From: Eledone cirrhosa
Lineage: Eukaryota
Direction of reading: 5' to 3'
DNA: 64,000 nucleotides
Assembly (NCBI GenBank): GCA_964016885.1
Contig: OZ024751.1
Coordinates: 6,200,001-6,264,000 of the forward strand
Below are positions 3,132-64,000 of this stretch, piece by piece. The translations under genes were made by a program, and so were the position numbers. Position 1 is the first letter of the stretch. Each line of letters starts with the position of its first letter. Below the pieces are notes generated by a model. It did not search any database, was not told where the DNA came from, and saw only the letters and a list, made by a program, of their open reading frames with translations.

Positions 3132-3255
3132 ACACACACGCACACACATATATATGTATGTTAAATATCAGAGAGAACAACATCAGATTTTTTAATTACA
3201 TTTACTCTCTGACAAATTGTTTCTGAAACCAAATAATTATATGTACATAGAGGAT

Positions 3256-3412
3256 TACTGGTACTTTATTTTATCGACCCCGTAAGGATGAAAGGCAAAG
3301 TCAAGTTCAAATCCCGCCGAGGTTGACTTTGCCTTTCATCCTTACGGGGTCGATAAAATAAAGTACCAGTAATGCACTGGGTAATTGCTGGCCTTGTGCC
3401 TAAAGTAGAAAC
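3256..3412 (+). mobile_element. 5'-truncated SINE with an inverted duplication and a 21-bp target-site duplication (TSD)
   Basis: TSD aattatatgtacatagaggat at 3235-3255 and 3413-3433. Bases 3254-3304 are the reverse complement of 3323-3373. Confidence 0.9.
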
Positions 3413-4719
3413 AATTATATGTACATAGAGGATATAATCATCGATTTTACGATCGATGTTTGTATAGTCAAAAGAAATGCTCCATACAATTCCCTCATAG
3501 GAGCCCAAACGAAAAGATTAAAACATAAACATTTAAAGGGAAATCATATCACTGAAAAATAAGGCCTACAGTAATGGCAATACTTGGATGAAATGAGTCC
3601 ACATGCTGGTGCTGTGTTTTTAAAGATGATCAGTTGAGACTTCGAGTAGCATGACGGTTTGAAAATAAATGGATGAATTTAAAAGTAACCAGAAGAGTGA
3701 ATAATAGGGAGGATATCTCGTAACAAAATGGATATAAAAAATTGGAAATGTATATATTATGGTTAATTTAAAATTATTTAGAAAGTGTGAAGGAAAGAAA
3801 TGCAGAAAAAACTGTATAAAAATTAAAAATTAATAATTTAAACGAAAAGATATACAAAATATAGTTATTTAGTATAGAATAGCAGGAGGAAGGTTTAATC
3901 AGTAAAACTTCACACTAAAAAAGAATAGATAATATAGATAGAAGTAATCCGAAGTGAATTAAAAATAATTGAAAATATTTAAACAACATTGGATTAAAAG
4001 GGGTTTAAAGATATTTAAAAGGTTTAAAGATATTTACTAAGGTGGAAAAGGAAAGAGGAAATGAGATATTTAAGAAATATCAGAAGTAAATAAAAAGAAA
4101 ATAAGATAATATGGGAAGAGATTTCAGTTAAGAAAAATAAGAAGTGTTAATAATGGGGAAGGTGAAATATTATTAATATAGTCTAATAATCTGGAGAATG
4201 GTTTACATATAAGGGGTTAAAGCAAAACTATAACAAAGATACATATAAATAGAAATAAAAAGAGAAGTCTTCCTTTTCAATAAAAATAAATAAGAGAAGG
4301 TTATATTAACAGTGAAAAGAAAAGGTAGTGAGAAGAGGAAAAACAAAAAGAAAAGAAGAGTGAGCCATTAACTAAGGATAGGATTTAAAGATAAAAATTC
4401 TAGGTTATACATTAAAACAGAAATGTAAAAAGTGGGAGTAAAAAGAAAAATAGTATTATTATAATACAGGAAAGGGTAAAGTAAAATATAAAATAAGTAA
4501 GATGTAAATTAGATAAGGAAGAAACTCATAACTAGTGATAGTGTGAGGGTAAGATGCATGGAGTGGTGGGTAAAAGATATATAGTAAAAGGGAGGGGGGG
4601 TAATCAAGTAAACTAATGGAATTTAAGTGGGATCAAATATCCTGTTAGCTAATGAGTATGCCAAACGATGATGGCAGTTAATAACATTGCGGTCATTTAT
4701 GGGGCAGGGTTTAAATAGT

Positions 4720-10457: not shown

Positions 10458-12436
10458 GGAGGTTTTACATATGGCATTGGTATTTATAGAAACAACGGAG
10501 AATCAAAACAATAACCTCAATAATAAAAGATAATAATAAAGAAGTAAAGTGTCAAGATGATAAAAAAATAATAAGTACAGAATACGATTGCTGATAGTAG
10601 TGGTGGTGGTGGTGGTGGTGGTGATTAAAGTTACAGTGGTGAGCAAGTGTATGTGTAAAGACCTGGTGAGGGTAGAGATAATACAAGCATGAAACGAAAC
10701 GTTAGATACATACATACGTAGTGGTCAAATCTCAGAGGGTTAGAGTAGATAATAAAAAATATTAACAAAAGACAGATAAAAGATAATAAATTAAAAATTA
10801 AGTGAGAGGGAAAGAGATACAGGACAGGAGACAGAGAGCGAGGTTGGCGATACGATGATACGTGTAGTTGATTTAATGACCAGTTGGTCAGTTGACAGCT
10901 AATTACAGTGGGGTGGTATGTAGTCAGTACATTAAAATCCGGGTGGTTCTGTTTGAATTCTGGGATTGCTGGACCGAATCATGTTGGTTTGAAATTTGCG
11001 AACTTGGTAGCTGCTTTGTGCCTACAGAAAGTCGATCGTTCTATTTTACTGTTAAGCACCATTTTATCATACTTCAACATTTGGAACAGTTCGATATTGC
11101 AAAGTCCGCAGTGGGACATTCCATTGTTTTAGGCCCTTGCTCCCGATAATTTCTAGCAGCTAATCCCATATTCCTGGTTTCTGTCCTTAAGCTGGCAGAT
11201 TTTATTGGCCAGCGTTGTTGAGTTCTCTAGTCTACGATTCTTCATAGAGTGTCTGGGGATGTTACCATCTTTTTTTTAATTCCCCAGCCGTAGAATCTAT
11301 GTAGTGCCATGCTAAGTTACCCGAATTGATAGTACACAGGTACACTATACTTGATTCCAGGCATCTATTTTGTAGTGGGCACTTATCCGGCAGGTGGCAG
11401 TTACAGTTGGAGGCCTTCCTGTGTGCAGGTTCCCCGTTGCGGTTTTGTATGTTGTTATGGATGGGCTGAAACTTAGGCTTATTGATGTTTTGTTGTGATG
11501 CGCTCTAACGTGTGTGTGGTTGTGATGTTGTTATGTGTTCGCGTTTTGTATTTGGTGTTATAGTGTATTTATAGGTTATTTTCCTTAGAGAGTCTTTTAT
11601 AGTTGATTTTATGTATGTGTGATTCTATCTTGACTGCAGTAGAGTAAGAGAGTTTGATAGTCTTTCTGTTAAAGATTCTATTGTATTTGTGTTGTTTAGG
11701 GAAGTATTCGTCAATTAGCTTAAAGAATGTAGAAGGTAGTTTGGTTTTTATAGAGGAGTTTTTATTGGATTGAACCATAAGTATTTCCTATCTCTGGATT
11801 TTCTATAGTTCCTAGGGGTCCCTATATTAGTATTCGGTTCGGTTATTTCTGGTGCTTGTTGTCTATTTCTATGTTTAGTTCTAAATTAGTTATTTCTATA
11901 GGTGTGGGTAGTGTAGTTGTCGTTAGGTTTGTTGTTGCTGTCTCTATCTGGTATGTATGAGCCACTCCTTATGGCCTGCCTTATGTAAAGCTATGTTAAA
12001 GTAGTTTGCGTGTTCGTTAAACATCTCTAGGTTAGAAGATAGGCGGGATATTCTGAGGGATATACTATGTGCTATGGAGTTAAATATGGAGCAAGGTGGT
12101 TTGAGTTATAACTAATGTAGGCTAGATTCTCGTTATTTTCTATTAGTCCTGTGTTTAGGTTGAGTGTTACATCTAAGAAGTTTGCTTTTTTAGAGTTAAG
12201 TTCGAAAGTGATGCCTAGGCCTAGTTTGTTGAAGAAGACTCTGATGTTTTTCCTTAATCTTTCAATGTTTTGATTATTTAAGTTTTTAGCTAAAAGGAGT
12301 GTGTCGTCTCTATAAATTCCTCCTTGGAGGTTATTAAATTCCTTATGTAAGTTATGCGCTATATATATTCCAACTATTTCTGTTACCTGTGCTGAGTCAC
12401 TAGATCCCATTGTGATATTGAAGCTATTCTGCCCGT

Positions 12437-12596
12437 TAGAGAATCGGACGCCATGCTTTGACGCATAGAGTTACGGCCCTTGCCATTCTGAGTTCAAATC
12501 CTGCCGAGGTTAACTTTGCCTTTCATCCTTACGGGGGTCGATAAAGTAATGCACTGGGATAAATGCTGGCCTTGTGCCAAAAGTAGAAACAATTAT
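12437..12596 (+). mobile_element. tRNA-derived SINE (dominant family)
   Basis: B-box gagttcaaatcc, conserved gcctttcatccttacgggggtcgataaa core and ...gtagaaacaattat tail. Confidence 0.9.
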
Positions 12597-12887
12597 CTCT
12601 TTTACTTATTTTTTACATTTTTGTCATCTTCACTAACTTCTTTACTTCTTTATTATTATCTTTTATTATTGATGTTATGGCTTTGATTCTCCGTTGTATC
12701 AATAAATACCAATGCCATATGTAAAACCTTCAATATTCCGATGATTTGATCAGAGCTAAACGCTGTATTTAAGGTCGAGTGACGCAACTTCGAGTGATTA
12801 GCAGCCTTTAGACTCACCTGGTCAATTGTTAATACTAGAAATAAAAACTTTTTGTACAGCCGAACATGTTATTCTTCAATCTTTCAC

Positions 12888-13081
<194 letters not shown>

Positions 13082-13483
13082 TTAATGCTTAGCATTTAAC
13101 TACTGATTAAATCTTTAAGTGATTTGCATTTTCAATATTTCTTCTACCCTTCCTGTCTGTGCATCTCTCATTCACTTGAAATCTGCCTTTCATAAATAAA
13201 CAACCCTTCAAACATATTTGATTGAGCCCCATCTAAGCTCTGATTAATCTGACCTATTATAAAATGTGACGAATATGATCTTATCTCAAGTTTCCTTCAT
13301 TTATCTTGGTCTTAATATTACTGTGTTCATTTTAAAAGTGTAAGGTACTGATGGGGGATAAGCATGATTCTATATCTAGCACATACGGAAGGTCAACCAG
13401 AGACTCTTGTTGGCTGGTCACAAAAACAACTGTAATGCCATATTCGTATAATAAGAGAAATTAGGGAATTCATAGTAACTGAA

Positions 13484-13671
13484 ATAATTGTTTCTACATT
13501 TGTCACAACACCAGCAATTATTCCAGTACATTACTGGTACTTTATTTTATCGACCTCGTAAGGATGAAAGGCAAAGTTAACCTCGACGGGATTTGCACTC
13601 AGACCATAAAGGGACGTAACTCTATGCTGCAAAGCAGGTGCCAGACCCTCTATCGATACTGCCAATCCACC
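13484..13671 (-). mobile_element. tRNA-derived SINE, full length
   Basis: Reverse complement of the family consensus (ggtggattggcagtatcg...gtagaaacaattat). Confidence 0.9.
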
Positions 13672-14069: not shown

Positions 14070-14348
14070 ATTAATTACATTTCGATGTAAATCCTTATTT
14101 TGCAGTAATTAAGAGGTGTGTACTCTTCTTGCGTTTTAAGACGCTGTATCTGAGCTGTCGAAAAATTATCTGAATAATATATGAATATTTATTAATAGTT
14201 CTGAACATACTTTATGGAAGTTGACAAGTGGAAAGAAATAAGTGACCTATTTGGTTCTTAAATTATCAAAATATAATCACATTATTTTACTTTGAAATAT
14301 GGCTAATTCATTTAGATAACTTTATTAAATAAATATAAGTTAAGATTT

Positions 14349-17110
14349 TGCAGCACCACGAATAGACGGAAGAGGGGCCGGAACTGTTCGGGATGCGGCT
14401 GCTTCCACCACTTTACCTGTGTTGGCTTGACGTGTCGAGCTTCCAGTGCCCTCGCAGCGTGGAGATGCAGAAACTGTCTCTTCCACTCGTCTGCCCAGCC
14501 ACGGCCGTCTGGCACTCAACCAGATGAGACAGCGAGCTTACCTGACGCCCAAGCCTCACTGGTCAACATCGCTCGGCTCAGTCGGCTCCGGAAGATCCCA
14601 CGCAGGATCCCGAGAGCGACCCGGGTGCTGGTAGCCTATGCCCTCGCTTCCTCGATTGAGAGCGCCCTGGAACCAATCGAGCCAGAGACTGGGAACGACT
14701 CTTCTATTTCGCCCCACTCGCCTCGGCCTCTAAGCTCTGGCTCGGTCGACAGCAGTTTTTGTCAAGGCTAATGTTTCGTCCTTTGAGCAAGCGCACGTTC
14801 CAAGCGTACCTAGGGACGCCACACACCCGACCCTCGGGTAGCCCTAATCCTCCAGCCCTGAGACCCGCGCCAAGCGTTTGCATGAACGCGTAAATGACGA
14901 ATTAATCATGGGTCATGTCTCGGCCGCAGTCAGAATGGTTGTCTCAGAGGTCACTGTCCTCCAACCCAACGAGGAGGTCCTGGCTGCCCTGCAACTCAAA
15001 TACCCTGAGCCACCCGCTTACCTCAAACCCATACCCCCCACCCGATCCCCACTTGCTCCTTGTGGCCTCCGACGCAGACATCATGTCCGCCATCATGTCC
15101 TTCCCAGCTAGCAGCAGTGGAGGTGCTGACGGTCTCCGAGCAAGCCACCTCAAGGTGTTGCTATCCCCCCCTCTCCGCCGAGGCCGGGTGCCGCCTTCTG
15201 AGTGCAATTGTGGCATCACCAATAGACTTATCCATGGTGCCCTTGACCCTCACGCCCGAGGCCTCTTTTTTTCGGCTAGCCTCACCGCTCTCAGGAAGAA
15301 AGATGGTGGCATACGCCCCATCGCTGTGGGCAATGTCTTCCGGAGGCTGGCTGCCTAGGTGGTCTGCAGGTCCATAAAACCCGAACTGGGTGAGGAGTTC
15401 AGTCCGGTGCAACTGGGTGTCGGCGTGTCCAGCGGCTGTGAGGGGGCCGCACATGCAACCAGGCAGTTCTTCAACAGTTGCCCAGCGGAACCGGCATCCA
15501 GGGAATCCAGGCAACTCATTGTCAAGCTTGACACGAGGAATGCCTTTAACTGCTTACGCCGGGACCATCTGCTCGATACCTGCCTCAGCCGAGCCCCCTC
15601 TGCCTACCCGCTGGCCCACCTGTCGTATGGAGCCCCGATCATGCTCCTTGCTGCTGATACAGTCATAGCATCGGCCACTGGCGTCCAACAGGGCGACCCT
15701 TTGAGCCCCCATCTGTTTGCCCTTGGTATAGACCACATCTCCCTGAATATCACGCCCCCTCTCAACGTTTGGTATCTGGATGATGTTACGCTATGCGGGC
15801 CCGTACAGATTGTCTGCCATGACCTACAATCGGTGGTTCCTGCCCTGGCAGAAATCGGCCTCCAAGTCAACTCGGCAGGTCAGAGGTGGTGAATGCCAGC
15901 CACGATGCTAAGAGCTTTGCAGCCTCCGTCCTGCGCGTGCAGTCCATTCTTCCCCAGGCACAGGTGACCCCCAAAGAGTAGGTCTTTCTCCTAGGGCCAA
16001 CGATCCACCCGCCTGCCATCCGCTCCACCATAAGGTTCAGGCTTCAATAACTCCAGACCCTCACGAGCCGACTGCGACTGATCGACGGCCACCCAGCTCT
16101 CTTTCTGTTGAGGATCTGCTTCGCCATGCCAAAGCTCCTCTATACCCTTCATGCGCTCCGTGCTACACCCACGCATCTCTCCTCGCTGACCTCGATACTT
16201 GTATCCAAGCAGCAGCCGAGGAGATATGCAACGTCAGGTTTGTCGACATTGGATGGCAACAAGCCATTTTATCTGTCAGGTATGGCGGAATTGGCATCCG
16301 GTCCCCGATCTCACTGGCTTTGCCGGCGTTTCTTTCATCGGTAACCACATGCCGCGTCCTTGTCAGCAGGGTTCTCCAAAACACAATATAACGTTCTGTG
16401 TCCAGAGAAGGTGAGGCCGCCTGTGAGACGTGGGACCGGCTGGAACTTAGCCCAGTAGACGTCTCTCCTCCCTCTGCCACCGCTGACGTCAAGTCCCCCC
16501 AAAGCCCTTGGGATGACTTCCAGTGCAACCTGGCTTCCGACAGGCTCACGCGCTAGCTCGACCATCACCGCCTTGCCTGTTTTCATGCGGCCTCCAAACC
16601 CCACAGTGGTGCCTGGCTCTATGCTCTTCCCTACTTCTCCACTGGCACGTAGCTAGATAAAAATAGCCTGCGCATCGGCGTTTCCTTGAGGCTCAGCCTA
16701 CGGGTCTATGAGCCACACCAATGTCGCTGTGGATCCACCGTGGACTCTTTCGGCCTCTACCCGCTTTCCTCTCGCCACAGTGTCGGCTACCTTCCACACC
16801 ACGCTGCACTCAACGAGGTCATAAAGCACGGCTTGGACGCTTCAGGCTTCCCTTCCCAGGTCGAGCGGGTGGGGCTGGACCGAGGGGACGGCAAAAAGGC
16901 CAGATGGCATGACCATCTTCCCGTTCCGCGGTGCCACTTGCACCGACACCTTCTGAAACCGCACCCTTTTGCCCAACCACTATAGGTGCTGAGCTGGTCA
17001 GCCGCAGGTGTGAGGCCTACGAGTTGGAATGGCTTTTTCAGCACGTCTTCCTTCCAGTCCTCCGGGGAAACGCCTTTTCTATTCTGTCCGCCGGGGCTGT
17101 GGGGAGACAA
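14349..17110 (+). mobile_element. CRE-like non-LTR retrotransposon (GC-rich), N-terminal PHD finger, decayed
   Basis: Motifs KDGGIRPIAVGNVFRRL, QLGVGVSSGCE, KLDTRNAFN, GVQQGDPLSPHLF, WYLDD and CRCG...HAALNEVI. Frameshifts and stops are present. GC content rises sharply relative to the flanks. Confidence 0.85.
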
Positions 17111-21570: not shown

Positions 21571-21722
21571 TATATATATATTTATATATATATATATATT
21601 CAATTTGTTGGTAATTCAACAAATATAAATGTTTATAACTGATTGAGAGCACTCGACAGTTTTCTGGGGTATAATATTCAATGATATTAAATAAATGGAA
21701 ACTATATTTATAAAACCATATT

Positions 21723-21785
21723 TATTCTATTATATATATATTTCAAGGGTACCAAAACTTTGGTACGCTCTCATCAGATAAAATA
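21723..21785 (-). ncRNA. Minimal type I hammerhead ribozyme
   Basis: Reverse complement reads tattttat-CTGATGA-gagcgtaccaaagttttggtaccctt-GAAA-(ta)n-atagaata. An inverted copy lies at 24943-25003. Confidence 0.8.
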
Positions 21786-22535
21786 CAAAGTTTGTTTTAT
21801 AATTCTGTTTTAAGATTAATAGAGTTTTGACAGTTAATTATATAACAAATTTCGTCGATACACAAGTTACAGAATCTTAAAAAAGCCATATTTCGGTATA
21901 CAGGTGCTTTTGAAATCGTTCCCCAAGATATTGAATAGTCTATATTGTTGTCGTTTAAGTTCCAAATTAAATGTGAAATTAAAGTGGAAGATTTTTTATC
22001 GGATCTATTAAATGTGTGTTTATGGTTATAGCAGATTTCTTTGAATTTTGTAGAAGTGGCACCAATATAGTTAAATGCTTTGCCTCTAGTTTTAACTGCG
22101 CATTTATAAATTACGTTTTTGTCTAAGCAATTATTTTGCACAGGGCAGTTTGATTTAATTCTACAGTTACATTTTCTGGAGTTGTTGTTATTCGGTACGG
22201 TACTATTATTCTGAATATTGTTATTAGAAATATTCTTATTGCTATCTTGGTTTGTTTGGTTAGGGTTTAAATTTATGTTTCTATTATTAATTCTATTTAT
22301 ATTTTGTGCTATGTTCATAGTAATAGAGTAGGATAGTTTTATAGTGTGTCTGTTAAAAATAGAGTGGTATCTGTGGCCTTTAGGGAAACATTTATCTAGT
22401 GCTTTAAAAAATAGCTTTGCTAAAGGTGTTTGCTTAATGAGAATGGGGGAGAGTACCAAATAATATTTCTAGTTCTAGCTTTTTTGTTTGGTTTAGTGTT
22501 TAAGTTGAATTGTTTAATATTATTATAATTAATTA

Positions 22536-22721
22536 GCGGTGGATTGGCAGTATCGGTAGAGGGTTGGACGCCATGCTTTGAAGCACAGAGTTACCTCCCT
22601 TTATGATCTGAGTTCAAATCCCGCCGAGGATGACTTTACCTTTCATCCTTACGGGGTCGATTAAATAAAGTACCAGTAATACACTGGGATCATTGCTGGC
22701 CTTGCGACAGATATAGAAACA
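22536..22721 (+). mobile_element. Full-length SINE with a 16-bp TSD, inserted in the PLE
   Basis: TSD attattataattaatt at 22519-22534 and 22722-22737. Confidence 0.92.
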
Positions 22722-23575
22722 ATTATTATAATTAATTCTAGGATGATTTGTCATGTTATTGTTATCTATGTATTTTATTTTATTCGAGTATCCTGCTCTA
22801 TGTAAAGCTTCATTGTAATATTCTGCCTTATCATCAAAAATATTTTTATTAGCAGAGATGCGTGAAATCCGTTGTTGGACGCTATTGACAATAGTGTTTT
22901 TTCATATTTCTAGGATGATTAGAATTGAAACTTACGTAATTTAGATTTTCGTTAATTTTATGGAATGGATAGTAAAGACCTGTGCAAAGGTTTAAGGTTA
23001 CATCTAAGAAGTTAAAGATTTTATAATTATACTCGATTTCTAAATTAAGGTTGTAGTTGTTGAAAAATTGTATTATGGATTTCCCTTTCCTATTAATTTC
23101 ACTATTGCTATGGTTTTCAATTAAAAATAACATATCGTCGCGATATAAACCTCCTGTCATCTCTGGCATTTTCCTGTGCCGTACATTATTAATAAATAAT
23201 CCAACGAGTCCGTTACTTGCGCCGAGTCAGATGATCCCATAGTGGTATCAAAATTGTTTTCTTCAGTACCGTTCTATAGTTTAAGTTGTGATTTTTCTTT
23301 CAGTAGTTGAATAATTATATCTGATAGGTGCTTGCTAATTATGCCTTAGTCCGATTTAGATGGTTCGATGGGTCTGACTGGTAGTTCAATTTCAAAATTT
23401 CTTTTGTGGTCCTTCAGGTTAATCGTCAGTTTTCTAGGTATAAAGGGTTCGGTCCTATTTTGAATGCCTAATTTATAAATAATTTCCGAAGCTTCCCTAT
23501 TTAACGTTGAAAGATCTTCATTTGATGTTATTTTGTAGTTTTTCCTGAGTCCTTTCAATATAAGATTATTATATT

Positions 23576-23757
23576 CGGTGGATTGGCAGTATCAGTAGAG
23601 GGTCGGACGCCATGCTTTGCAGCATAGTTACGACCCTTTACGATCTGAGTTCAAATCCCGCCGAGGTTGACTTTGCCTTTAATCCTTACGGGGTCGATAA
23701 AATAAAGTACCAGTAATGCACTGGGTAATTGCTGGCCTTGTGCCTAAAGTAGAAACA
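23576..23757 (+). mobile_element. Full-length SINE with a 13-bp TSD, inserted in the PLE
   Basis: TSD attattatattcg at 23565-23577 and 23758-23770. Confidence 0.92.
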
Positions 23758-25070
23758 ATTATTATATTCGTCCTTTTCCATACCATATAAATTATTTGTT
23801 TTGTCAGATTTTACCAGGATCTTCTTTGTTTCTTCTAGATTGTCTATGTTATTCTTGAGTCCTTTAAGGCACTCCTGGCCGATAAATTGGTTTCTTTTGA
23901 ATTTAATGTTTTATATAATAGAGATTACTTCATTTTCAAATTCGGCTAGTAGTTTGTTGCTAGGTGGATTCTTCTTAGATTTCAAGATAAGATCGAAGTT
24001 GTAACTGGATTTATTTATTTTCTCCGATTTTTAATCAAAATGGAAAGCACGCCATCTAAGTCTTCGTATAAAGGAGTCAGATTTCTCTATGAGATATTTT
24101 AGATATTCCTTATTTTTAGGTAAGAAGAAATTAATCTCACATAAAATAATATATAATGTTCTCTATATATTATCTGAGTAAATCATTCATCAAATTTAAC
24201 GGTTAACAAATAAGGTTAGAGTTATCTTTTCCTTTTCAATCGTGCAAAGATAAATATTATATTATAATATAATATGTATGATAAACTATATAACCTCTCT
24301 AAATTAACCATATTCTGAAAACATTTTCACTGTTGAAACAAAATATTTGAATCTACAAATTATTCTCCTCTTACAACTTGAACTACGTGTTTTTAATGTA
24401 AAATGCAAAATCAACAACCTTCGTAACTCATATTAGAAATGTAAACAACTACTAACTGTAAATTATTTCTATTTCTATAATACTTATACATGCACAATTA
24501 TTAATCTATATAGATACTTATATACTTACAACCTATTGTAATGTAATAAGATAACATCTACTTACAACCATAATTCTTCATATAACCTAATTGATTATAT
24601 ATAAAATATATAACTCATAATATAGCTAAATAAAATTAAATTGTGGAATCATATTCCACCATTCGGGCAAATTGTTAATTCCTTTTAAATTAACGTAAAT
24701 ACAAGCTCTTCTTTTTTCTTTTCTTTTTCCTAATTATACAGACATATATTCTAATTATTTAAATTCTGCATAGCGTCTAAAAATAACGTTTTTCCAGCCC
24801 TATACCTCAACCTCATTTGCATACCCATCTTAATAGTTTGAAATATCTGACATTTCTTCTCTTTTCTTTCACTATCCAAGAAAAACTTGAACCGTTAAGG
24901 TATCTTTTCTTGGTTATGTCAAAATTTATAAAACAATCTTTGTATTTTATCTGATGAGGGCGTACCAAAATTTTGGTACCCTTGAATTATATATAATAGA
25001 ATAAATATGGTCTTATAAATATAGTTTCCATTTATTTAATATCATTGTATACATATATATATATATATAT

Positions 25071-27563
25071 TTATTTAGGTTTGTTGGTTCACCACTGGAT
25101 AGAACTGGTCATTCCGTATGGTCAACCTCGATATAATATTATGGAGAGCACTCAACGTAATGCAACTCACCCGTCTTCGTTTGTGTAGTTGGTGTTGCAA
25201 ATACGGAGTTAATTATTATAAAATAACAGGAAGCTGGACTGGTGTAATTCCTTAAAGGTTTTATTATCCTATGACCATTTCAATGACCGGGTTCAGTATG
25301 AATCCGGTGACATCATCAGGTATTCAAAATATAACAAAGGAATATAATAGACAAAATCCATGGGGCTGAAAATCAGAGACATGAAGGCTACCGAACATTT
25401 AGCAGCCTCTACCTCGGTCTGCCCTCCTTAAGTGGTGATTATTAAGCCTACTTATGTCCCTCTGGTGAAGGGGCGTAGGCTTAGTGTGTACTACTACCAC
25501 CCCGTCAAAATCAGAGGACAGCGTTGTCGTCAGGTCACATTCAAACTGGTCATGCGTGCTAGAAAGTGCCGCGAAAAATATCAAAAAACATATATTCTTA
25601 GCAAATCTACATATAGTAATATATAGTGGGCGCCTGCATGGTACAATGTATGGACAGAAATTACGATTAACAATTACATACGTTAAATTTATGTTTAGAG
25701 TTAGAAGATGTCATTTAAGATGAAATTAGAAAAATAAGGTTTAGGTTTGCAGTTGTTAGATTTAGTTAAAGAATTTACAGATTGAGGTTTTATGAAAACG
25801 TTTAAGTGTATTATAGATAGTCACGATAAAGTTTCAGGGTAGAATATAGCGTAAAGATTAAGCCCATGCTTAGCGGCCAATAACCAGCGGCGGTGCGGAC
25901 CCCCGGATGCCCGTGGCCCGACGGCCTGTCAGCCGTTCCGAGTATTATCGTCTTGCGAAAGAAATGGAAATTTATTTTTCCTAGCACTCCAGGAACGTTA
26001 CCTGTCTTAAGCGTCGGGTGTGTCAGCGGGTGTCTGCCACCGTCCGCCGACCATCGTATATACCAAACGATTACTAGATATTCACACCCGTGATGTGAAG
26101 TTGAAAGTGGTAAAATCTGACGAAATGTGCAAATAGACTATATTTAGACCCCACTTAGTCCGGGTTATATGTAGTGTGATTCCTGGGTGGGGAGGGGGAG
26201 TGAATAAAGATAAACAGATATAAGGGTCCAGAGAGTAATATTCTAGGGTCGTATGCTAATGAGTACAAGGATACGTATATAAGGAGAGTAAAGCGAGTAA
26301 ATAAATGCATAAATAAAACCGTAAGTAAAATACATAAATACATAAATAAAATACAGTCATACCTGGTGTGGTGATGTAGGGAGTAAAAGGGAAGTATATA
26401 AGAACATATCGAAGAAATCACAATACAGAAGAAATAAAATACAGATCAAGGTGCAGTAAATGGGCAATATATAGCACGGTTGGAGAATGCAATGTTATAC
26501 ATATAGATATACAGGATGAAAGAGTAGGAATGGTATCGAGTGATACCTAGTGTATGTTCGAGTCTTAATTTTCAATGTGAATCCCGAAAACCCTGAAATA
26601 TAGGATAGGGAATTCAGTCAATACAATACAGGGTATAGTAGAATATGTTGATTCTTTGAAGAATCTATGAGGTCCGACGGAGTCTGAATATTCCCGACAG
26701 GGAAGCAGCAATGCATGGTCAAGGTGGGTGGTAGACAAAACTCAAAGCAGCCAAAATCCGAAAGGTGCATAGTTAGTCCCATGCTGGCGATAGCTGTACA
26801 TTGGAGTCAGTGCCGCAGTTGATTATTAAATCTGAAAGCGCTCGACATTTCCCGGAGCATTATTTATTTAGGTTTGTTGGTTCACCACTGGTTAGAACTG
26901 GTCAACCTCGATGTAATATTATGGAGAGCACTCAACGTAATTCATTTCACCCGTCTTCGCTTGTGTAGTTGGTGGTGCGAGTACGGAGTTAATTATTATA
27001 AAATAACAGGAAGCTGGACTGGTGGAATTCCTTAAAAGGTTTATTATCCTGTGATCATTTCAATGACCGATTTCAGTATGAATCCGGTGACATCTTCAGG
27101 TATACGAAATATAACAAGGGAATATGATAGACAAACTCCATGGGGCTGAAAATCAGAGACATGACGCCCATTAATATTACTATATATAGATTTTCTAAAG
27201 ATGTATGTTCTTTGATATTTTTCGCGGCACTTCCTAGCACGCATGACCATCTTTAATACTGGCCTCTGTATTTGACGGGGTGGCAGTATTACACTATAAG
27301 CTTACGCCCATTCACCAGATGGGCATAAGTAAGCTTAATAATCACCACTTGAGAGCATCCGACCGAGGTAGAAGCTGCTAAATGTTCGATCACCCTCGTG
27401 TCTCTGACTTTCAGCCACATGGATTTTGTGTTATATTCCTTTGTAATATTTCGAATACCTGATGATGTCACCGGATTCATACTGAACCCGGTCATTGAAA
27501 TGATCATAGTATAATAAACATTTTAAGGAATTACACCAGTCCAGCCTCCCGTTATTTTATAAT
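25071..27563 (-). mobile_element. Non-coding retrozyme / non-autonomous PLE: ~1.79-kb unit, direct terminal repeat, inverted 5' repeat, three HHRs
   Basis: 25071-25383 is repeated at 26864-27163, and 27166-27563 is the reverse complement of ~25217-25633. HHRs at 25267-25323 (-), 27047-27103 (-) and 27455-27512 (+). Flanked by (TA)n. No ORF. Confidence 0.85.
27455..27512 (+). ncRNA. Type I hammerhead ribozyme, canonical core
   Basis: atac-CTGATGA-tgtcaccggattcatactgaacccggtcatt-GAAA-tgatca-ta-gtat. Confidence 0.85.
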
Positions 27564-27606
27564 ATATATATATATTGTTATACTTGGGGAGGGTCATGTT
27601 GTTGTA

Positions 27607-35360: not shown

Positions 35361-35367
35361 TAGATCA

Positions 35368-35542
35368 ATAATTGTTTCTACTTTAGGCACAAGGCCAGCA
35401 ATTACCCAGTGCATTACTGGTACTTTATTTTATCGACCCCGTAAGGATGAAAGGCAAAGTCAACCTCGGCGGAATTTGAACTCAGATCGTAAAGGAACGT
35501 AACTATGCTGGAAAGCATGGCGTCCGACCCTCTACTGATACT
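35368..35542 (-). mobile_element. tRNA-derived SINE
   Basis: Near-consensus reverse-complement copy. Confidence 0.92.
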
Positions 35543-44057: not shown

Positions 44058-45568
44058 AATAAGGAAAAGCGAAGTAGTTTCAGATGTTCAAGTCCTTTAA
44101 TAATAATTGTCTCTACTTTAGGCACAAGGCCAGCAAATGCTCAGTGCATTACTGGTACTTTATTTTATCGACCCCGTAAGGATGAAAGGCAAAGTCAACC
44201 TCGGCGGGATTTGAACTCAGATCGTAAAGGGACGTAACTATGCTGGAAAGCATGGCGTCCGACCCTCTACTGATACTGCCAATCCACCGCCCTTAATAAT
44301 AATGCTGTGATATATATTTCAATGGCGAAAGTGGCCACACTGTTCTGTGCGCCAGTCTCGTGACATCGTCAAACAGCTTGTTACATAATAAGGTTATGTT
44401 TCCGAGGCAATCCAAATTGAATCGACATGGGAACGGACGGAGTATGTGCTTTTGGGTTTTTTATCCGTTTCCCTGTGAGTACCAATTCACACTCACTGGT
44501 CTGCGCAGGCGCAGGTCCAGGGGGAAGTTGACCATTAGCTACCGCAGATTTAAACGAAATTCGCTTAGTCAGTTCCCTCTCTCAGCCAGACAATGACCTA
44601 TTCAAGCCGGCACCATAGTTTACTGCTATCCATCCCATCTGTGGCAGTCAGCCGAAAGCCAATGGGGATGGGAAAGTGTTAGAATGTACAGGTCTCTATA
44701 CTATCTCTCACTAATAACTGACCATCAAGCCTTAAGAGTATATACTTTTAATTCTATGTATCATAGTTTCATATTGGAAGTTATAAGTGAAATTAGAACT
44801 AAAAATTACAATTTAAATTCGAAAATCCTAAATCAGGTATCAGAAATTATAAATTAAAAAATTAACAAATAGAAATTAAACAATTAAAGATTTTTCATGT
44901 GAGAATCCGGATTGAGGTGAGTAAAAAAAAAAATATAGATTGAAGTGAGTAAACAATATGCAGAGAGATGTTTAAGTAAGGAGTTCTGAAAGGGGTCCTA
45001 ATGTTAGAGTTAGACTAACTACATACTGGACGATGGTGCCGTACAGTAGAACTGAGAGTAAATTACAGTATTACGGGTAGTAGACGACTGGGTACATAGT
45101 CGTAATTTCCATCACATGGAACAAAACCAACAAAGACATATATAAAGTAAACAAAAGAAAAGAACCAATGAATGAATGAATGAGTGAATGAATGAATATA
45201 TGAATGAATGCAAAAACACAGAGTAAATATATGCAAAATGATCCATATTATTATCAATTTGTCCATGTATAAGTTGAATTGAGGGGGCTGCTGTTCAAAT
45301 GCGATTTGGTGCAGAAAAATAGGGGTTTATCTTTGTTTCCGCGTATTTATCCTGCCGAAAGTTATTATGTCCGACCAGTGTTCGGGGTTTCCATCCCATG
45401 GTAGAGGGAATTTCCAGGGGTAGCTCATGGTTGGTTCCTCTCTTCTCCACCATATCGGTTACATCATTGAGCGCTCAAATAATTGGAGCTAAATTCTTAG
45501 GGTAAACATTGTTGCAATTCAAATCAGATCAATTTGATTTGAATTGCATCGATGTTTACCCTAAGAAT
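44058..45568 (-). mobile_element. Non-coding HHR-bearing element (HHR 44304-44377) ending in a hairpin at 45493-45568
   Basis: 44058-44440 without the SINE matches the reverse complement of 6255-6455. HHR reads gctgt-TTGACGA-tg...catt-GAAA-tatata-tc-acagc. Confidence 0.6.
44102..44291 (-). mobile_element. Full-length SINE with TSD (ttaataataat)
   Basis: Near-consensus copy flanked by ttaataataat. Confidence 0.9.
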
Positions 45569-48619: not shown

Positions 48620-48791
48620 AAATAAAATAACAGGAGGCTGGAGTGGTGAAATTCCTTAAAGGTTTATTATACTATGAACATTTTCAATGACCGAGTTCAG
48701 TAGGAATCCGGGGAAATCATCAAGTACTCGGAAATTTAACAATAATAGATAAAATCCAAGGGGCTGAAAAGCAGAGAGAGATGCCAAGGCG

Positions 48792-48844
<53 letters not shown>

Positions 48845-50620
48845 GGTTTGTTGGTTCACCACTGGATAGAACTGGTCATTCTGTGTGGTCAACCTCGATG
48901 TAATATTATGGAGAGCACTCAACGTAATGCAACTCACTCGTCTTCGTTTGTGTAGTTGGTGGTGCGAGTACGGAGTTAATTATTACAAAATAACAGGAGG
49001 CATGTACTGGTGTAAATCCTTGAAAGGTTTATAATACTATGATCATTTCAATGACCGGGTTCAGTATGAATCCGGTGACATCATCAGGTAATTCAAAATA
49101 TAATGGAGGAATATAACAGATAAAAATCCATGCTTTTTAAATCAGAGACAGGAGGGCGGCCACAATTTAGCAGCTTCTAGTTCCGTCGGCCGCCCTCAAG
49201 TGCTGATTATTAGGTCTAGATATTACCATCTGGTGTGGGGGCACAACCCTTTACTGTACTGCTATCATCCCGTCAGATGGAAATGTCAGCGCTGAGGTCA
49301 CGCGTCAATCAGGCTGGTCAGGCATGCTCGATATTTCCGGGAATTATGTTTTTTCAAGGACAAACATCATCCACAAAGACAGACATAGAGATTAAAAAGG
49401 GAGAGAGTGTATGTGAATGAAAGAGAGATAGATAGTGACGGTGAGAGTAAAACAGAGAGAGAGAGAGAGAGGGAGAGAGAGAGAGAGAGAGAGAGGGGGA
49501 GAGAGAGAGAGAGAGTGGGAGAATGAAAAACAGAGTTTGACAAAGAGAGTGAGACAGAGAGAGTGTGTTTAATTGATATAGAGAGAAGGGGATAATTAAC
49601 ATAAGGAGGCTTTTATGAAGAAGTTTAGGTGTAATATAGTCACAATAAATTGTCAGGGTAGTATATAGAGTAAAATTACACCCGTGTTAGTGGTCAATAA
49701 GCAGTGACGACTGCGGGCCCCGCGATAGCCACACCCTGCCACGTGCCAGCTGGTCCGAGTAACATCGTCTAGCGAAAGAAATGGAAATTAGTTTTTCCGA
49801 GCACTCCAGGAATATAGCTGTGTTAGGCGTCGGGTATGTCAGCGCGGAGCCTCAATCGCCGGCTGGTCATCGTATATACCAAGCGGTTGCTATTATATCA
49901 CACATGGTGGGGATTTAGTTAAGTGCTAGTAGGAAGAGGCATGATACAGCTAAAGGTTACGACTAAGTCTAGAAAATAAAGGTACTATTTGGCGGTCAAT
50001 TCCGGCGGCGCAGCGAGTCCCAAGCTCGGCCTAGCCCGGGGTCGAAGCAGCAGTTCCGAGTAATTTCGTCTATCGAAAGAATGGGAAATTTATTTTTCCA
50101 ATCACTCAAGGAAGGCTAAAACGCCCGAGTGCCTGGTGCGCAGTCGGGTAATCCACCACATCCGTCGGATCATCGCGTGTTACCAGACGATTAATATTTA
50201 TTCACACCCGTGGTGTGAGGTTGAAAGTGGTAAAACGCGATGAAATGCGCTAATACACTATATCTCGTCCCCATTTAGTCCGGGTTATAGTAGTGTGGTT
50301 CTAGGGTGGGTAGGGAGAGTGAATAAGGAATCAGATATATGGGTACCTAGAGTAATATTCCAGGGTCGTGTTCTAATGATTACAGTGGTAGTTTTGTACT
50401 GGGAATAGAGCGAGTAAGTAAATACATAAGTAAAAGGAATAGTAAGCAAAATACAAAATACAAAATAAAAGCCAAATACATAAATAAATAAAAATACATA
50501 AATAAAATGCAGTCATAACTAGGGTGGAGTAAAACGGAAATATAGAGAACATATCGAAGAAATCAAAACGCAGGGGAAAATATACGAAAGATCGAGGGGC
50601 ATTCGGATAGTACAACGTTA
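48620..50620 (-). mobile_element. Second, diverged copy of the 1.8-kb retrozyme/non-autonomous PLE family
   Basis: 48845-49370 resembles 25075-25620 and 50200-50620 resembles 26080-26500. HHRs at 49034-49091 (canonical) and ~48668-48728 (degenerate). Confidence 0.85.
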
Positions 50621-57029: not shown

Positions 57030-59134
57030 TTTGATAGCTACTGGGTTCGCAAAGTTAGACCTTCTAATTTTGATATTACTATGAGTTCTAATGACTCAGC
57101 GGAAGTAACAGATCTTGTGGGAATTTATATCACCCACAGACTATAGGGAAAATTCAAGGATCTCCACGGTGGAATCTACCGTGATGATGCGCTCCTATTA
57201 GTTAAGCATATGAATAACCAGAATTTACAAAGGATGCGTAAAAATATCAGAAAGCTTTTTAAGGAACTAGGATTAAATATTACATTTTAGTATAACCTCA
57301 AAGAGGTCAATTTTCTTGATGTTACTTTGAATCTTAATACAGATACGATTAAACCGTTCCATAAACTAAATGAGAACCTTAAATATGTAAATACGAGTTC
57401 TAACCATCCACTCTCTATAATTAGATCCATCCCTAGAAATGTTTCTCTTAGAATCTCCCGCCTGTCGTCCAACCAACAAACCTTCAAAGAACATGCCGAA
57501 TATTATGATTATGCACTTAGAAAAGCCGGACACCTAGATAATATCGAGTATATAGTCGAAAATCACCAAAACACTCAAAATAAATCCCATAGGAGTAGAA
57601 ATAGCACAGAATCACCACCATACATACACTACCGCAATAGACACAATAATAGTCGCACACCACCAAAGAGAAGGCGATGTAAAGAATATATTTGGTACAA
57701 CCCGGTCTATAACAACTCTATTAAGACCAATCTACCCTCACAATTCTTTCGATTAGTTAAAAAACACTTTCCAACATCACATAAATATAATAAAATCTTA
57801 AACCCTAACACTATTCGACTTTCATATTCAACCGCCCCTAATATTGAACAACATATAAAAAAGCTTAACGCAAAACGGTTGTATAAACGCCTTCTAACAC
57901 ATAACAATACACGTAAAACATTAGCTATAACATCACAAAACAACAAACAACATCCTGTCCTACCTAAGCAACCTCATCAACCCATCCATGACAATACAAC
58001 AACGCAAAATTATAATTGCAACTGTGTCCAACCAGGAATGTGTCCGGGGAACAATCAGTGTCTTGAACGCAACATCGTATACAAATGTACTATCGAATCG
58101 GATAGACAGAAGTGGTACTATGTGGGATCTACAGCCACCTCCTTCAAATCACGCCTTTATAGACATCGTTACTCGATAAAACATGAAAACCAGCGTTATG
58201 TAACAACACTCGCAGACAAGGCTTGGCAGCTGCGTGAAAATAACCAACAATTTCACCTTAAATGGGATATAATAGCAGCTGACCTCCATATACCCACGGA
58301 CAGGAATTTTGTAAATTATGTAATGTACAATTATTTTGTATTATGAAATCCAAAAACATTTTATTAAATAACAGAATAGAGCGATCGTTATACTGTAACC
58401 ATCGCTTAAAATCTATATTTTCCTATTATAAACACCGCCAGGATTGAACGCCCGTCTCTATCTCCGTTTGGTTGTCAAAATAGATATTAACATTCTCTAT
58501 TAGTCTTAATTCTATCAACTCTTCTATTATTTACCATTTAATATATATTTCTTTTAGCAGTTTATATTTACCATTTAATATAAACTGCTATAGATAAAAT
58601 GAGATTTCTGATTTCTTAATTCAATTCCCTAATGCACATACCAGCTGGCTAATAGCATTGATGTTATTCAGTAGCAATCGAAATCTCCCCCTTCCCCAAT
58701 TGACACTTTATAATTAATACTACTACACCAAATGACCAGCCCTGTCCACTGTCCAATTGGTCAAGTAGAGATTAAAATTGGCACTCCCAAAAATTCTTAT
58801 TTAGATAAAATGAACCATTTACTCATGGTATGCTCATTAGAAACCCTTTATATACTTGTTTAGCAGTAAATTGAATTAACATCTGTCATATACTATCCCC
58901 TCTCTTCTTCCGCTTTTACTAATATAAATACTTCAATTTTTCTGATTTTATCCAATTTATCCAAAATCTCTGAAGAAGTGACAACTGATTATACATTTGC
59001 TATCGAATACTTGCTAACATTATATGATTACGCAAGCAGCGATACATAGGTATTCCGTCTGTTACAGAAACATATGTCAATACCTAATAAATTCCTTTTT
59101 AAAAAAAGCACTTTCATTTTATATTCATCTTTTC

Positions 59135-61029: not shown

Positions 61030-64000
61030 ATTATTTCCCTGCTGGCCAGCCAATGTACTACCCTAAGAGCCGGGCAACATTCCATGGACTTCCAATTCCA
61101 TGTGTAATGCAAGTATTTATTGCCGGAAGAACAAATAAAAATTAATAGAGAACACCAAATCGCTTGTCTTATGATTAATCAGGAAGCGCGTCCCTCAGGA
61201 ATGTTCCAATCTGAGAACAAAAATCCCCCTCTGGCACAAACTCTTCTCCGATGGTCACTTGAACGGGGATTGCTCCAACTCGAGCTCCCCAGATCCCCCC
61301 ACCCAAGCCACCCGCAAAAGAAAAATGTAAAAGGATAAAATGGACCCGAGAAGAGTATAAAGAAGTAATATATGCACATTACTATGCATTAAGTAATCCA
61401 TCACAAGACAGACACACTGCAAACTGATACAACATTTGGAAAACACTGAATCCCGCTAACAGACCTTATCTGGATGAAAAGTTAGCAAATGTTAGGAGGG
61501 ATATCTTCAGAAATAATAGACTCACAGATTCTGAAATAACTGAGCTCAAGCATGCTGTGGAGAATGACATAAATATAAGTCATGAAAGAACTGAAGAATT
61601 TCCTGGAGATAGTAACTAGTCTCAAGTCTTTACCGAAAGACCATCATCTGACCAAATCTCAAATAGAAGTGAGTATTCCTATTAATCCTGCTGAAAATAG
61701 CCAGGGATGGGTATAGAAACAGTACTTGAAGACCAAACTTTTGCTGAAGAACACAGAGAATCCATGAAGGAATTGAAACAGAAAATACTAAATGAGCTTG
61801 CAGTTGTAAGACAACTAGTATAAATGATAGAGAACCACTTCAAAATCTCCCAAATAGAATCCAAAATAAAAAAAAACAAATAACTGTTTTTACTTTAGGC
61901 ACAAGGCCAGCAATTATCCAGTGCATTACTGGTACTTTATTTTACGACCCCGTAAGGATGAAAGGCAAAGTCAACCTCGGCGGGATTTGAACTCAGATCG
62001 TAAAGGGACGAAAGTATGCTGGAAAGCATGGCGTCCGACCCTCTACCGATACTGCCAATCTACCGCCATAAAAAAAACAAATAATGATTGGTAAATACTA
62101 TAACAAAAGAAATAGAAGAATTAGAATCTGATCATACTGAGTTAAATGAAATCATTTATGCATCTGCTCGAGTAATTAAAACAAGTTGTTTACCACTAAA
62201 AAAACAAAGTCTAACTTGAGAAGTAAAGCAATTGGGAGCAGTCGAATTGAAAAGGAGATTGACTTATCTTTACTGAATGAACTAATTACTGGAAATGTTG
62301 TAAGATCCAGGAAGGGAAGAAAGCTAAAGGGAAAATATGAACATTCTTCTAGAGAATAAAGGAAACAAGAAGTCCAAGTAAAAGCCCAAAGAATTCGTAG
62401 ATTTGAGAAGCCAAACAACTTCTACAAGCAAAATAAGTTGTTCTCATCCAATGCCAAGTCATTGTATAAAGAAATAGGAAAGGAGAAAATAACTATTGAA
62501 GACCCTCCGTCCATAGAAGAAGTTGGAGTGATGAGGGTCACATAATGCTAATGTAGACTGGATTAGTCGCTTGGAAAAATTTTACACAAATTTACAAGAA
62601 CAAGCAAGGGGAGACATCTCTATAGCAGACATCACTCAATAAAGCTCATAAATGGAAATATCCTGATAGAGACAGGGTGCCAATTTTCTGGCTTTCCTCA
62701 CTCCCGTGCACTCACAATATATTAGTCAAGCTGTTCAACGGAATTATGAAAGATCCAAAAAATACACCTGACTGGATAGCAAGTGGCATTAACTACCTTC
62801 TCCCAAAGAACAATGAAACTAAGGATAAAAAATATAAAAAAGTATCGGCACATAACCTGCTTGACCACCACTTATAAACTATTAACATCTATTCTCATGA
62901 AGAAAGCATACGTGTTTTTGGAGGAAAACAATATTTTCTCCATTGAACAAAAAGTGTGCCAACGAAGTTCATATGGTTGTAAGGATCAAATCTTTATTAA
63001 TCCTATGATCCTTGAGAACTGTCATAATAAACACAGAAATCTCAGTTCTGCATGGATCGACTACAAAAAAGCTTTTGACAGTACTCATGCATTCTCAAAT
63101 CACTGGAAATCTTCAAAATCTCACCTGTGATTTCAAACTTCCTGAAACACAATATGTGATTGTGGAACACAAATCTCTAATTATTTCATTCCAATTGAGT
63201 ACTAAGTCCTAAGAATATAAACATCAACTGTGGCATTTTCCGACTTCACTTTTTTGTATAGCTTTAATACCCCTTACACCCAAACTTAATAGGACAAGGT
63301 ACGGTTACAAAATTGACAACAAGAAAATAAGCCATTAATTAATGGCAAAAACAAAAGGGCAACAGCAATTAGCATCAAAGTGGAAACAGAAACCTCTGCA
63401 TGGCAAATATGTGGCATGTGGCAAACAAGCTGATGTTGACCAAGGAACACCCATCAGTGGCTAAATAGCTTAGGGATAAAAGCAAAGCGTGAAGACTTCA
63501 TCTTAGCCCAAGATCAAATATTACTGACACGGAAATACCAGGCCAATATGATGAGAATGGAAGTAAATCCAAAGTGCCGATTCTGCAATGTTGAGGTTAA
63601 ACGGTGGACTACCTAGTTTCTGGATGTAACGTTTTAGCCCCATTAGAGTACAAATATAGACATGACAGAGTTGGCCAATATCTACACTGGGTAATATGTC
63701 GGCATTATAAAATCAAAGCTGCTGAAAAGCGGTACAATCATCACCCTGAGGCTGTAACTGAAGGAGAAAAAGTAACAACAGAACCATGAAAGCTAATAGA
63801 CCAGATATCATTGTAAATTACCAACATAGCAAGGTCTGTTTACTGATTGATATGAGCATCCCATGTTTTTACAATATCGTGGCAAAAGAATTCGACAAGC
63901 TAAGAAATTATAAAGATCTGTTTATTGAAATCGAAAAAATGTGGCACCCCACGCCGTTACGATACCAGCGATTGTGGGAGTACTGGGAATGATGAAGAAA
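61030..64000 (+). mobile_element. R4/Dong-like non-LTR retrotransposon, long decayed copy running off the window
   Basis: YRHITCLTTTYKLLTSI, GCKDQIFI, SAWIDYKKAFDS, YRHDRVG and ANRPDIIV..IDMSIP. An internal deletion at ~63335 removes the DD motif. Same family as 1357-2865. Confidence 0.88.
61882..62067 (-). mobile_element. Full-length SINE with TSD, inserted in the LINE
   Basis: ataaaaaaaacaaataa occurs on both sides. Confidence 0.9.

Follow-up and report, generated by a model that had tools for sequence, protein, structure and literature searches.

A repeatedly duplicated module with a predicted rod-and-junction fold inside a non-coding Penelope-like element of Eledone cirrhosa

Penelope-like elements (PLEs) carry, according to the accessible text of the papers that describe them, a hammerhead of type I in which position 9 is followed by an extra base and helix III is palindromic (PMC4209133), and are marked by pseudo-long terminal repeats (pseudo-LTRs), an inversion, an optional tail and (TA)n targets (PMC8557442). 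In an anole PLE the reverse transcriptase (RT) uses two internal start sites and needs RNA sequence 3' of the start, and the RNA has an RT-binding region near these sites (available sections of PMC11167929). For the access of protein-less Penelope derivatives and retrozymes to the RT of another element, the hammerhead and the start sites are the sole cis signals described in the literature that we surveyed. Here we analyze a stretch of 64,000 nucleotides from Eledone cirrhosa (contig OZ024751.1, positions 6,200,001 to 6,264,000 of the forward strand; hereafter the window), in which three copies of a module represent an internal domain of a ~2.1-kb non-coding PLE and delimit a candidate second cis signal to 60 bases.

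The host element shares with PLEs that bear pseudo-LTR hammerheads, as the consulted parts of PMC4209133, PMC8557442 and PMC11167929 portray them, pseudo-LTRs in partial tandem, an inverted 5'-truncated copy, two 3' ends, (TA)n targets and a type I hammerhead with the same extra base and palindromic helix III. It departs from the PLEs portrayed there in having no open reading frame (ORF) and in ends that lie 166 nt apart rather than 30-40. Metazoan non-LTR retrozymes (PMC7229834; 10.64898/2026.07.22.740005, each as far as its accessible text goes) are likewise non-coding, carry a type I hammerhead, have been proposed to derive from PLEs and occasionally form tandem units, whereas they measure 170-400 nt against ~2.1 kb here, and our element is mostly dispersed and 5'-truncated, with an RNA that is mostly unstructured and holds discrete conserved domains. 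An earlier interpretation of the window from its letters alone (the sequence-only reading) had termed the host retrozyme-like, which fits its hammerhead and non-coding nature but not the size of the unit; judged by its sequence, the host is better called a non-autonomous PLE with hammerhead pseudo-LTRs. The rod-and-head domain described below is absent from the same portions of the three PLE papers and from 30 loci of one abundant autonomous PLE family, the one family searched, in which neither head, module nor element found a match. A literature search that did not extend to subscription journals, Repbase and preprint supplements returned no account of a comparable domain, whether in PLEs or in retrozymes. 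Retroelements are known to have structured cis-elements, and what appears to be new is that a non-autonomous PLE has a rod-and-junction domain that is internal and was duplicated repeatedly.

The module copies in the window are as follows, with helices P0 to P3 being predicted pairs:
25869..26071, minus strand: module copy 1, an A paralogue (F1A), predicted to form a rod with a three-way-junction head
25936..25995, minus strand: head of copy 1, made of the predicted pairs that follow
25995-25992/25939-25936, minus strand: P0 of copy 1, followed by a UG bulge
25989-25985/25944-25940, minus strand: P1 of copy 1
25981-25977/25970-25966, minus strand: P2 of copy 1, with the loop AAUAAA at 25976-25971
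25955-25951, minus strand: loop enclosed by P3 of copy 1
49686..49887, minus strand: module copy 2, an A paralogue (F2A), with its head at 49753-49812 and the loop AACUAA
49988..50191, minus strand: module copy 3, a B paralogue (F2B) that lies upstream on the RNA, with its head at 50054-50113 and the loop AAUAAA

The three copies announced by the sequence-only reading are all present, as predicted rods, and the core pattern it gave matches at 25937-25995, 49754-49812 and 50055-50113. Its description of three diverged copies needs refinement, as copies 1 and 2 are paralogue A of two subfamilies and copy 3 is paralogue B, and the AAUAAA hairpin loop that it assigned to the module occurs in copies 1 and 3 but not in copy 2. 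A covariance model trained on 20 loci outside the window and then run on it returned three matches, every one on the minus strand (204, 185 and 200 bits for copies 1, 2 and 3, respectively), and an 18-base pattern describing both hairpins has 761 exact matches in the 3.0-Gb genome, compared with 0 for the reversed control. Copy 1 is 91% identical to the F1A consensus and its computed fold is a rod with a head (-73.7 kcal/mol). The window copies have decayed by ~9% from their own subfamily consensuses, and taken singly on the minus strand they give shuffle z values of -0.09 (with wide limits), -2.83 and -1.56 for copies 1 to 3; they fold just modestly better than shuffles, and the fold signal rests on the subfamily consensuses. 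The three outer stems that had been quoted as pairing despite sequence change can each be traced, yet in copies 1 and 2 they correspond to neighboring helices of the rod, in different columns, so that these stems alone provide no evidence of covariation.

On the basis of computed folds, the minus-strand RNA is predicted to form a ~70-bp imperfect rod capped by a three-way junction, with 56-75 pairs in all across the consensuses. In the predicted head, P0 (4 bp) leads by way of a bulge of two bases, the first of which is U, to P1 (GAGUR/YACUC) and a three-base joint CUY; P2 (GGAAA/UUUCC, 6-9-nt loop), a pyrimidine joint and P3 (3-5 bp, 4-5-nt loop) follow. Duplexes between the two arms reach z values of -1.6 to -5.7 against dinucleotide shuffles on the minus strand and are weaker on the plus strand in 14 of 15 consensuses; by energy, the arm duplex is stronger on the minus strand in 15/15. 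In a strand-neutral alignment the arms contain 135 G-U versus 50 A-C appositions, a share of 0.73 where composition predicts 0.62. Across 30 loci the left ends are fixed at 25048 or 25214 (in window positions) beside (TA)n and the right ends vary, which identifies the minus strand as the RNA of the element. A plus-strand fold was rejected: copy 1 folds slightly better there (z -1.43), but the consensus arms, the truncation polarity and an editing scar all favor the minus strand.

This scar lies in a single copy, L160 (G000:C1:27333000-27337000, ~990-1835), which differs from four sister copies by 105 A-to-G and 8 T-to-C changes on the RNA strand. The A-to-G changes are all confined to the first 850 nt from the 5' end of the RNA strand, the boundary is sharp, and the share of altered A residues depends on the preceding base (2/30 after G, 44/68 after U, 50/88 after A), a bias that we take to be the preference of ADAR. 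The scar is found in 1 of 415 pieces and has no T-to-C counterpart. By this pattern L160 is an edited RNA that was reverse-transcribed and integrated, and since the A-to-G tract is on the minus strand, minus-strand RNA was the template; the tract spans spacers and loops alike, however, and L160 is thus no evidence that the rod formed. Formation of the rod by ADAR was rejected, as the arms show no A-to-G excess (35/4463 versus 56/5607 T-to-C).

The module combines a nearly fixed head with freely changing arms. Over 15 consensuses on a fixed tree, parsimony assigns 0.24 changes per column to paired head positions, 0.88 to unpaired head positions, 2.01 to the arms and 2.41 to the sequence outside. 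In none of the 22 consensuses is there a change in the CC, bulged U, GAGU/ACUC, CU or GGAAA/UUUCC, and such constancy of helix and unpaired bases is expected of sequence-specific recognition or tertiary contacts. Among nine younger families the mean identity is 0.84 for the first head and 0.93 for the second, 0.95 for the hammerhead and 0.93 for the 3' pseudo-LTR, compared with 0.59-0.66 for the arms and 0.53 for the spacer. At greater depth, F1 and the older F10B/F11 are 0.92-0.95 identical in the head, 0.72-0.81 in the hammerhead window, 0.62-0.65 in the 70 nt 3' of the hammerhead and 0.58-0.79 in the arms, and F1 and F12 are 0.75-0.81 identical in the head and 0.73 in the hammerhead. In one comparison between paralogues, F4A and F5B differ at 5/59 head sites and 63/125 arm sites. 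The head thus changes as little as the hammerhead, or less, and a core no more conserved than the rest of the element, which the sequence-only reading had named as refuting it, was not observed.

Although the arms diverge to ~50% identity, their complementarity is retained and the two arms co-evolve. A module's own arm pair beats swapped pairs in 91/105 and 74/78 comparisons, and when the same substitutions are re-placed at random the observed duplex beats the null mean in 14/14 cases, in 11 of which no more than 7 of 150 nulls reach its strength. Head pairs change by way of minus-strand wobbles (U-A, U-G, C-G; G-C, G-U, A-U), and P3 differs in sequence yet still pairs in F12 and F10A. The proposal of a selected RNA domain on the hammerhead-sense strand is supported by the contrast in rate between head and arms together with the arm-pairing tests; as for covariation, the arm-swap and re-placement tests are positive, and the head shows no significant covariation of the classical, pair-by-pair kind, which in part matches one of the refuting outcomes named by the sequence-only reading. 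Private substitutions acquired after insertion are even across regions (0.019-0.024 per site, 107 copies), the lower value of the head being within ascertainment bias. This even decay points to selection on the replicating masters and not for the host, and on the same ground exaptation at the host level was rejected.

The history of the family offers what amounts to a natural mutagenesis, in that a ladder of 12 subfamilies shows which bases never change, which pairs can be swapped and what befalls the module after duplication. Clustering gave 22 module consensuses in 12 families, F9 being represented by single young copies. The A and B modules form two congruent ladders that go back to a duplication near F4, and F10, F11 and F12, the copies of which are more diverged (~0.17 versus 0.09-0.12), fall outside this split. 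F11 has one module and F12 one within the 1.25 kb reconstructed; the pair in F10 is distinct and far older, a third copy arose in F7 and in F9 the A module was replaced by a second B, which makes four duplications of the module at the least. Among the 53 copies reaching across the region, two heads are present in 46, three in two and one in four, the last being the class to which the first element of the window belongs; in the rearranged L130 no head lies between the landmarks. AAUAAA is kept in the upstream copy and often lost from the downstream one. A search with a head pattern allowing a longer loop gave no matches. Five near-identical F4 pieces (L224-L229, G000:C4:77.58-77.61 Mb) lie within a larger tandem duplication. 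In a second organism, short contigs match a portion of an A head and arm with 9 differences in 149 bases, which suggests that the family may not be restricted to this species. The module represents an uncatalogued animal RNA motif, with evidence from one genome and these short contigs.

Searches for known relatives are in line with this. At the gathering score Rfam had 0 matches in the window, missing the pseudo-LTR hammerhead too, and over five young loci its 29 matches at E<=10 include none on a module, which bears out the earlier statement that no known RNA family is recognizable. No match to a known RNA or short interspersed element (SINE) family was obtained: tRNA prediction found 0 tRNAs in 9 loci, the box B pattern of RNA polymerase III (Pol III) is not conserved in 8 family consensuses, and a SINE head derived from a tRNA or small RNA was rejected for want of a tRNA-like fold or conserved Pol III boxes. 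Metagenome contigs, viral contigs and prokaryote genomes, collections that contain few animal sequences, gave 0 matches.

We favor, tentatively and at somewhat short of an even call, the interpretation that the module is a docking site for a host RNA-handling protein. A helix of fixed sequence with fixed unpaired bases, mounted on a rod of free sequence, looks like such a site. The end of the element that likely faces the RT evolves more rapidly than the head, a contrast that suggests a slowly evolving host factor as the partner and not the RT (compare the accessible part of PMC11167929); for the same reason the RT-recruitment suggestion of the sequence-only reading is weakened in its direct form, since the pseudo-LTR part that likely faces the RT evolves faster than the head. 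In the mechanism that we envisage, the three-way-junction head would bind the host protein while the rod would isolate the head from the remaining 2-kb RNA and hold it folded. The bound factor might stabilize the ORF-less hammerhead RNA, or might move it to where the RT of an autonomous Penelope is captured in trans, and the lineages with the domain would then be those that continue replicating. Duplication would supply a second site, after which the downstream copy could relax its loops and P3 and keep the P0-P1-P2 core. The fold in vivo, the binding of a protein, the host identity of the partner and the role of the factor are what we infer here, on top of what the data show directly: the anatomy and copy number of the element, its RNA strand, the contrast in rate, the kept complementarity of the arms, the repeated duplication and the even decay of inserted copies.

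Functional analogues of such an arrangement have been described. The Alu domain with SRP9/14 (PMC11760393, available text) is also a small folded domain that occurs twice in a non-autonomous element, and a route via the host protein to the RT of another element has been proposed for it in that text. The module differs in showing no sequence or Rfam similarity to it and no sign of descent from a host RNA gene, and in being internal to an element without a poly(A) tail where the Alu domain is 5'-terminal. The constitutive transport element (CTE) and the IAP and MusD transport elements (PMC4588558, in the part accessible) are internal structured cis-elements required for the fate of an RNA; they serve protein-coding LTR elements, whereas the module belongs to an ORF-less element and has no Rfam match.

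Several results weigh against the docking site, or against the fold on which it depends. For the F10A and F6A consensuses the fold has no advantage over shuffles (z -0.3), for F8A and F8B the re-placement null is not beaten (23/150 and 47/150), and the arm tests share branches, so that their comparisons are not independent. Double changes occur in 4/40 pairs, a level that 198/500 shuffles attain, and in the head in 2/19 pairs, both through a G-U state on the RNA strand (220/500 shuffles as high; score, 60/500), each double change being a single event on one lineage; the score of 0.172 for the 40 pairs is reached by 1/500 shuffles, in a control that ignores kinship. Several families were recruited with head-based patterns, which inflates the conservation of the head, although the B modules and F9, recruited without such patterns, show the same contrast between head and arms. 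Simple avidity leaves unexplained why only the upstream copy keeps the full head, and the invariant GGAAA/TTTCC could be a site at the DNA level. As a guess, the purine strand of P2 and the pyrimidine joint may form base triples, which would also account for the lacking covariation.

Among other explanations, we regard as possible, if rather unlikely, that the head is a structure-gated, leaky poly(A) signal, read through some of the time at the first upstream head and ending the transcript at the next in tandem arrays, so that the polyadenylated template extends past the internal RT start sites and the fold throttles AAUAAA in the manner of the polyA hairpin of HIV-1. That hairpin (PMC2645353, accessible part) likewise presents AAUAAA at its top in a terminally repeated retroelement RNA, whereas the hairpin of the module is a junction arm on a 70-bp rod and is not part of the terminal repeat, and the hexamer disappears from the downstream copy. 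In support of this idea, and of the sequestered poly(A) signal that the sequence-only reading had suggested, AAUAAA is commonest or tied in the upstream or only head of 12/12 families (2/4 each in F6 and F7), and F12 keeps it in another register within a longer loop (8/9). Downstream it is lost (F2 0/25, F3 0/16, F5 0/12, F6 0/8, F7 0/4, F10 1/23), a polarity predicted if the first signal wins, though one that rests on only two independent losses. The RT of PLEs has its start within the RNA and depends on sequence lying 3' of it (PMC11167929, available sections), and tandem units do exist: L123 (G000:C1:90308200-90316200) has three head-to-tail F6 units, a possible master array. Against this, the entire upstream head is frozen and not the hexamer alone, heads without AAUAAA keep P0-P1-P2 and the rod, and use of the signal in a single-unit copy would remove the RT start sites; an A-tail is seen in 0/15 genomic pieces with an RNA 3' end near the head, although one would not expect the 3' ends of an RNA to be recorded in PLE copies. 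It is quite unlikely, in our view, that the core is functionless or acts at the DNA level, as paired GGAAA sites or an internal promoter, the rod being an old fold-back remnant. P1 and P2 never covary, and the GGAAA inverted repeats presumably resemble Rel/NFAT half-sites; yet P0 and P3 change and keep their pairs via intermediates for which pairing is possible on the RNA strand alone, the complementarity of the arms is actively maintained, and an eight-fold contrast in rate is not expected of a neutral remnant.

The presence of a small multi-stem junction with invariant unpaired bases, in an element that already bears a hammerhead, invites the thought of catalysis. That an animal retroelement has here, in the head, a catalytic or switch RNA of a new class, in which the junction cuts, joins or gates the 3' end of the transcript together with the pseudo-LTR hammerhead, seems to us equally doubtful, and the narrower version, in which the second ribozyme that had been put forward processes the element transcript by cleavage or ligation, is highly improbable. 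Helix II of the element's own hammerhead closes with G-U and not G-C in young families, which would suit this version, but the module lacks a known core: it has neither the catalytic-core sequence nor an Rfam match of a known small ribozyme (hammerhead, also permuted, hairpin, twister, pistol, hatchet or HDV-like), and its consensuses contain no conserved CUGAnGA or hairpin-ribozyme loops. The 61 5' ends within the module span are scattered, with at most three per position, and do not pile up at a single site; a cut in mid-unit would moreover halve the template, and loops and P3 drift in the downstream copy. We also rejected a permuted hammerhead (compare PMC10085705, accessible part), for which no CUGAnGA is conserved, and loop A of the hairpin ribozyme on the plus strand (GUC opposite AGAA), which is not conserved in B modules, F6A, F7A and F12. 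An exonuclease roadblock at the base of the rod was dismissed because 5' ends do not gather there (9/61 at +90 to +116), and a kissing-loop palindrome in loop 2 because it is seen in some A families only. Finally, we hold it very unlikely that the G-U-rich, bulged rod is itself the functional part, as a shield or decoy against the surveillance of double-stranded RNA (ADAR, Dicer, PKR-like sensors), with the head merely capping it. Such a role would suit arms that keep pairing with any sequence and prefer G-U over A-C, and L160 shows that element RNA met an A-to-G editor. It leaves the invariant head unexplained, however, and the arms lack the A-to-G excess while the edited tract, in its 1/415 pieces, covers spacers and loops alike.

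Within the host element, the module lies in a unit that is bounded by direct repeats, often with an inverted 5'-truncated copy, a layout repeated in many loci and in which we found no conserved ORF. Its features in the window are:
25048..27164, minus strand: element 1, one unit between two pseudo-LTRs, subfamily F1, found by self-BLAST; lacks the B unit by deletion; its RNA 3' end, 25048, adjoins (TA)n
25048..25384, minus strand: 3' pseudo-LTR of element 1, with alternative ends 25048 and 25214, 166 nt apart
25266..25324, minus strand: type I hammerhead motif (CUGAUGA, extra base, helix II, GAAA, palindromic helix III), with a predicted cut after 25270
26861..27164, minus strand: 5' pseudo-LTR of element 1, with a second hammerhead motif at 27050-27104
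27165..27575, plus strand: inverted 5'-truncated copy, the usual Penelope inversion, with a hammerhead motif at 27454-27512
26079..26087: short repeat common to the ends of the A and B units; deletion junction
48815..50601, minus strand: element 2, a 5'-truncated F2 copy with both modules and a hammerhead motif at 49034-49092
48622..48777, minus strand: separate short pseudo-LTR fragment with a 25214-type end, adjoining element 2

Element 1 lost its B unit by deletion between the short repeats at 26079-26087, and its ends at 25048 and 25214 are probably reverse-transcription start sites, by analogy with the anole PLE (PMC11167929, available sections). The 3' half of the hammerhead has 4,998 exact matches in the genome; the extra base sits after position 9, helix III is palindromic, and in young families G10.1 stands opposite U, which is the G-U closure of helix II noted above. 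Copies of the element are mostly single, dispersed and 5'-truncated to varying extents, with fixed 3' ends and an optional tail. Of 40 loci sampled by their hammerhead, 34 are without the module head, most ending within 600 nt, and all six that reach the module position carry the module. An autonomous partner sharing the 3' end was sought in the same 40 loci, and an ORF on this pseudo-LTR was found in 0/40; the 30 loci of the one autonomous family searched yielded no such partner either.

Other observations concern the surroundings of the element. A GC-rich hairpin lies just upstream of the hammerhead (window ~25395-25425), and ~10 of 49 5' ends in hammerhead-sampled loci fall within 12 nt there, a cluster that suggests an RT stop or strand-switch point. 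Between hammerhead and module the spacer has in several subfamilies been replaced by purine-rich low-complexity sequence (window 49343-49594; the same region in F6, F7 and F9), the RNA being hence pyrimidine-rich. A second, unrelated short repeat at 24926-25051 and 21675-21802 has its own hammerhead-like motif (21782, minus strand), and element 1 is inserted in (TA)n at the end of its 24926-25051 copy. On the plus strand, 57291-58346 is a fragment of an autonomous Penelope-like family with 48,853 candidate places in the genome, open frames of up to 747 aa and two alternative 3' ends ~110 nt apart; no canonical hammerhead was seen in the 3' flank of this family in 30 loci. A GC-rich RT-coding element with a broken frame occupies 14316-16550 (plus strand), and similar pieces flank L004 and L290. 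A SINE-like repeat of 115-200 nt has at least 13 copies in the window, including 3254-3418, 12434-12606, 13458-13671, 22515-22730, 23561-23766, 35367-35542, 44100-44303 and 61879-62075. Outside the window, L127 contains at 6634-5620 (minus strand) an uninterrupted 338-aa frame, possibly a retrocopy, which we take to resemble DNA polymerase beta.

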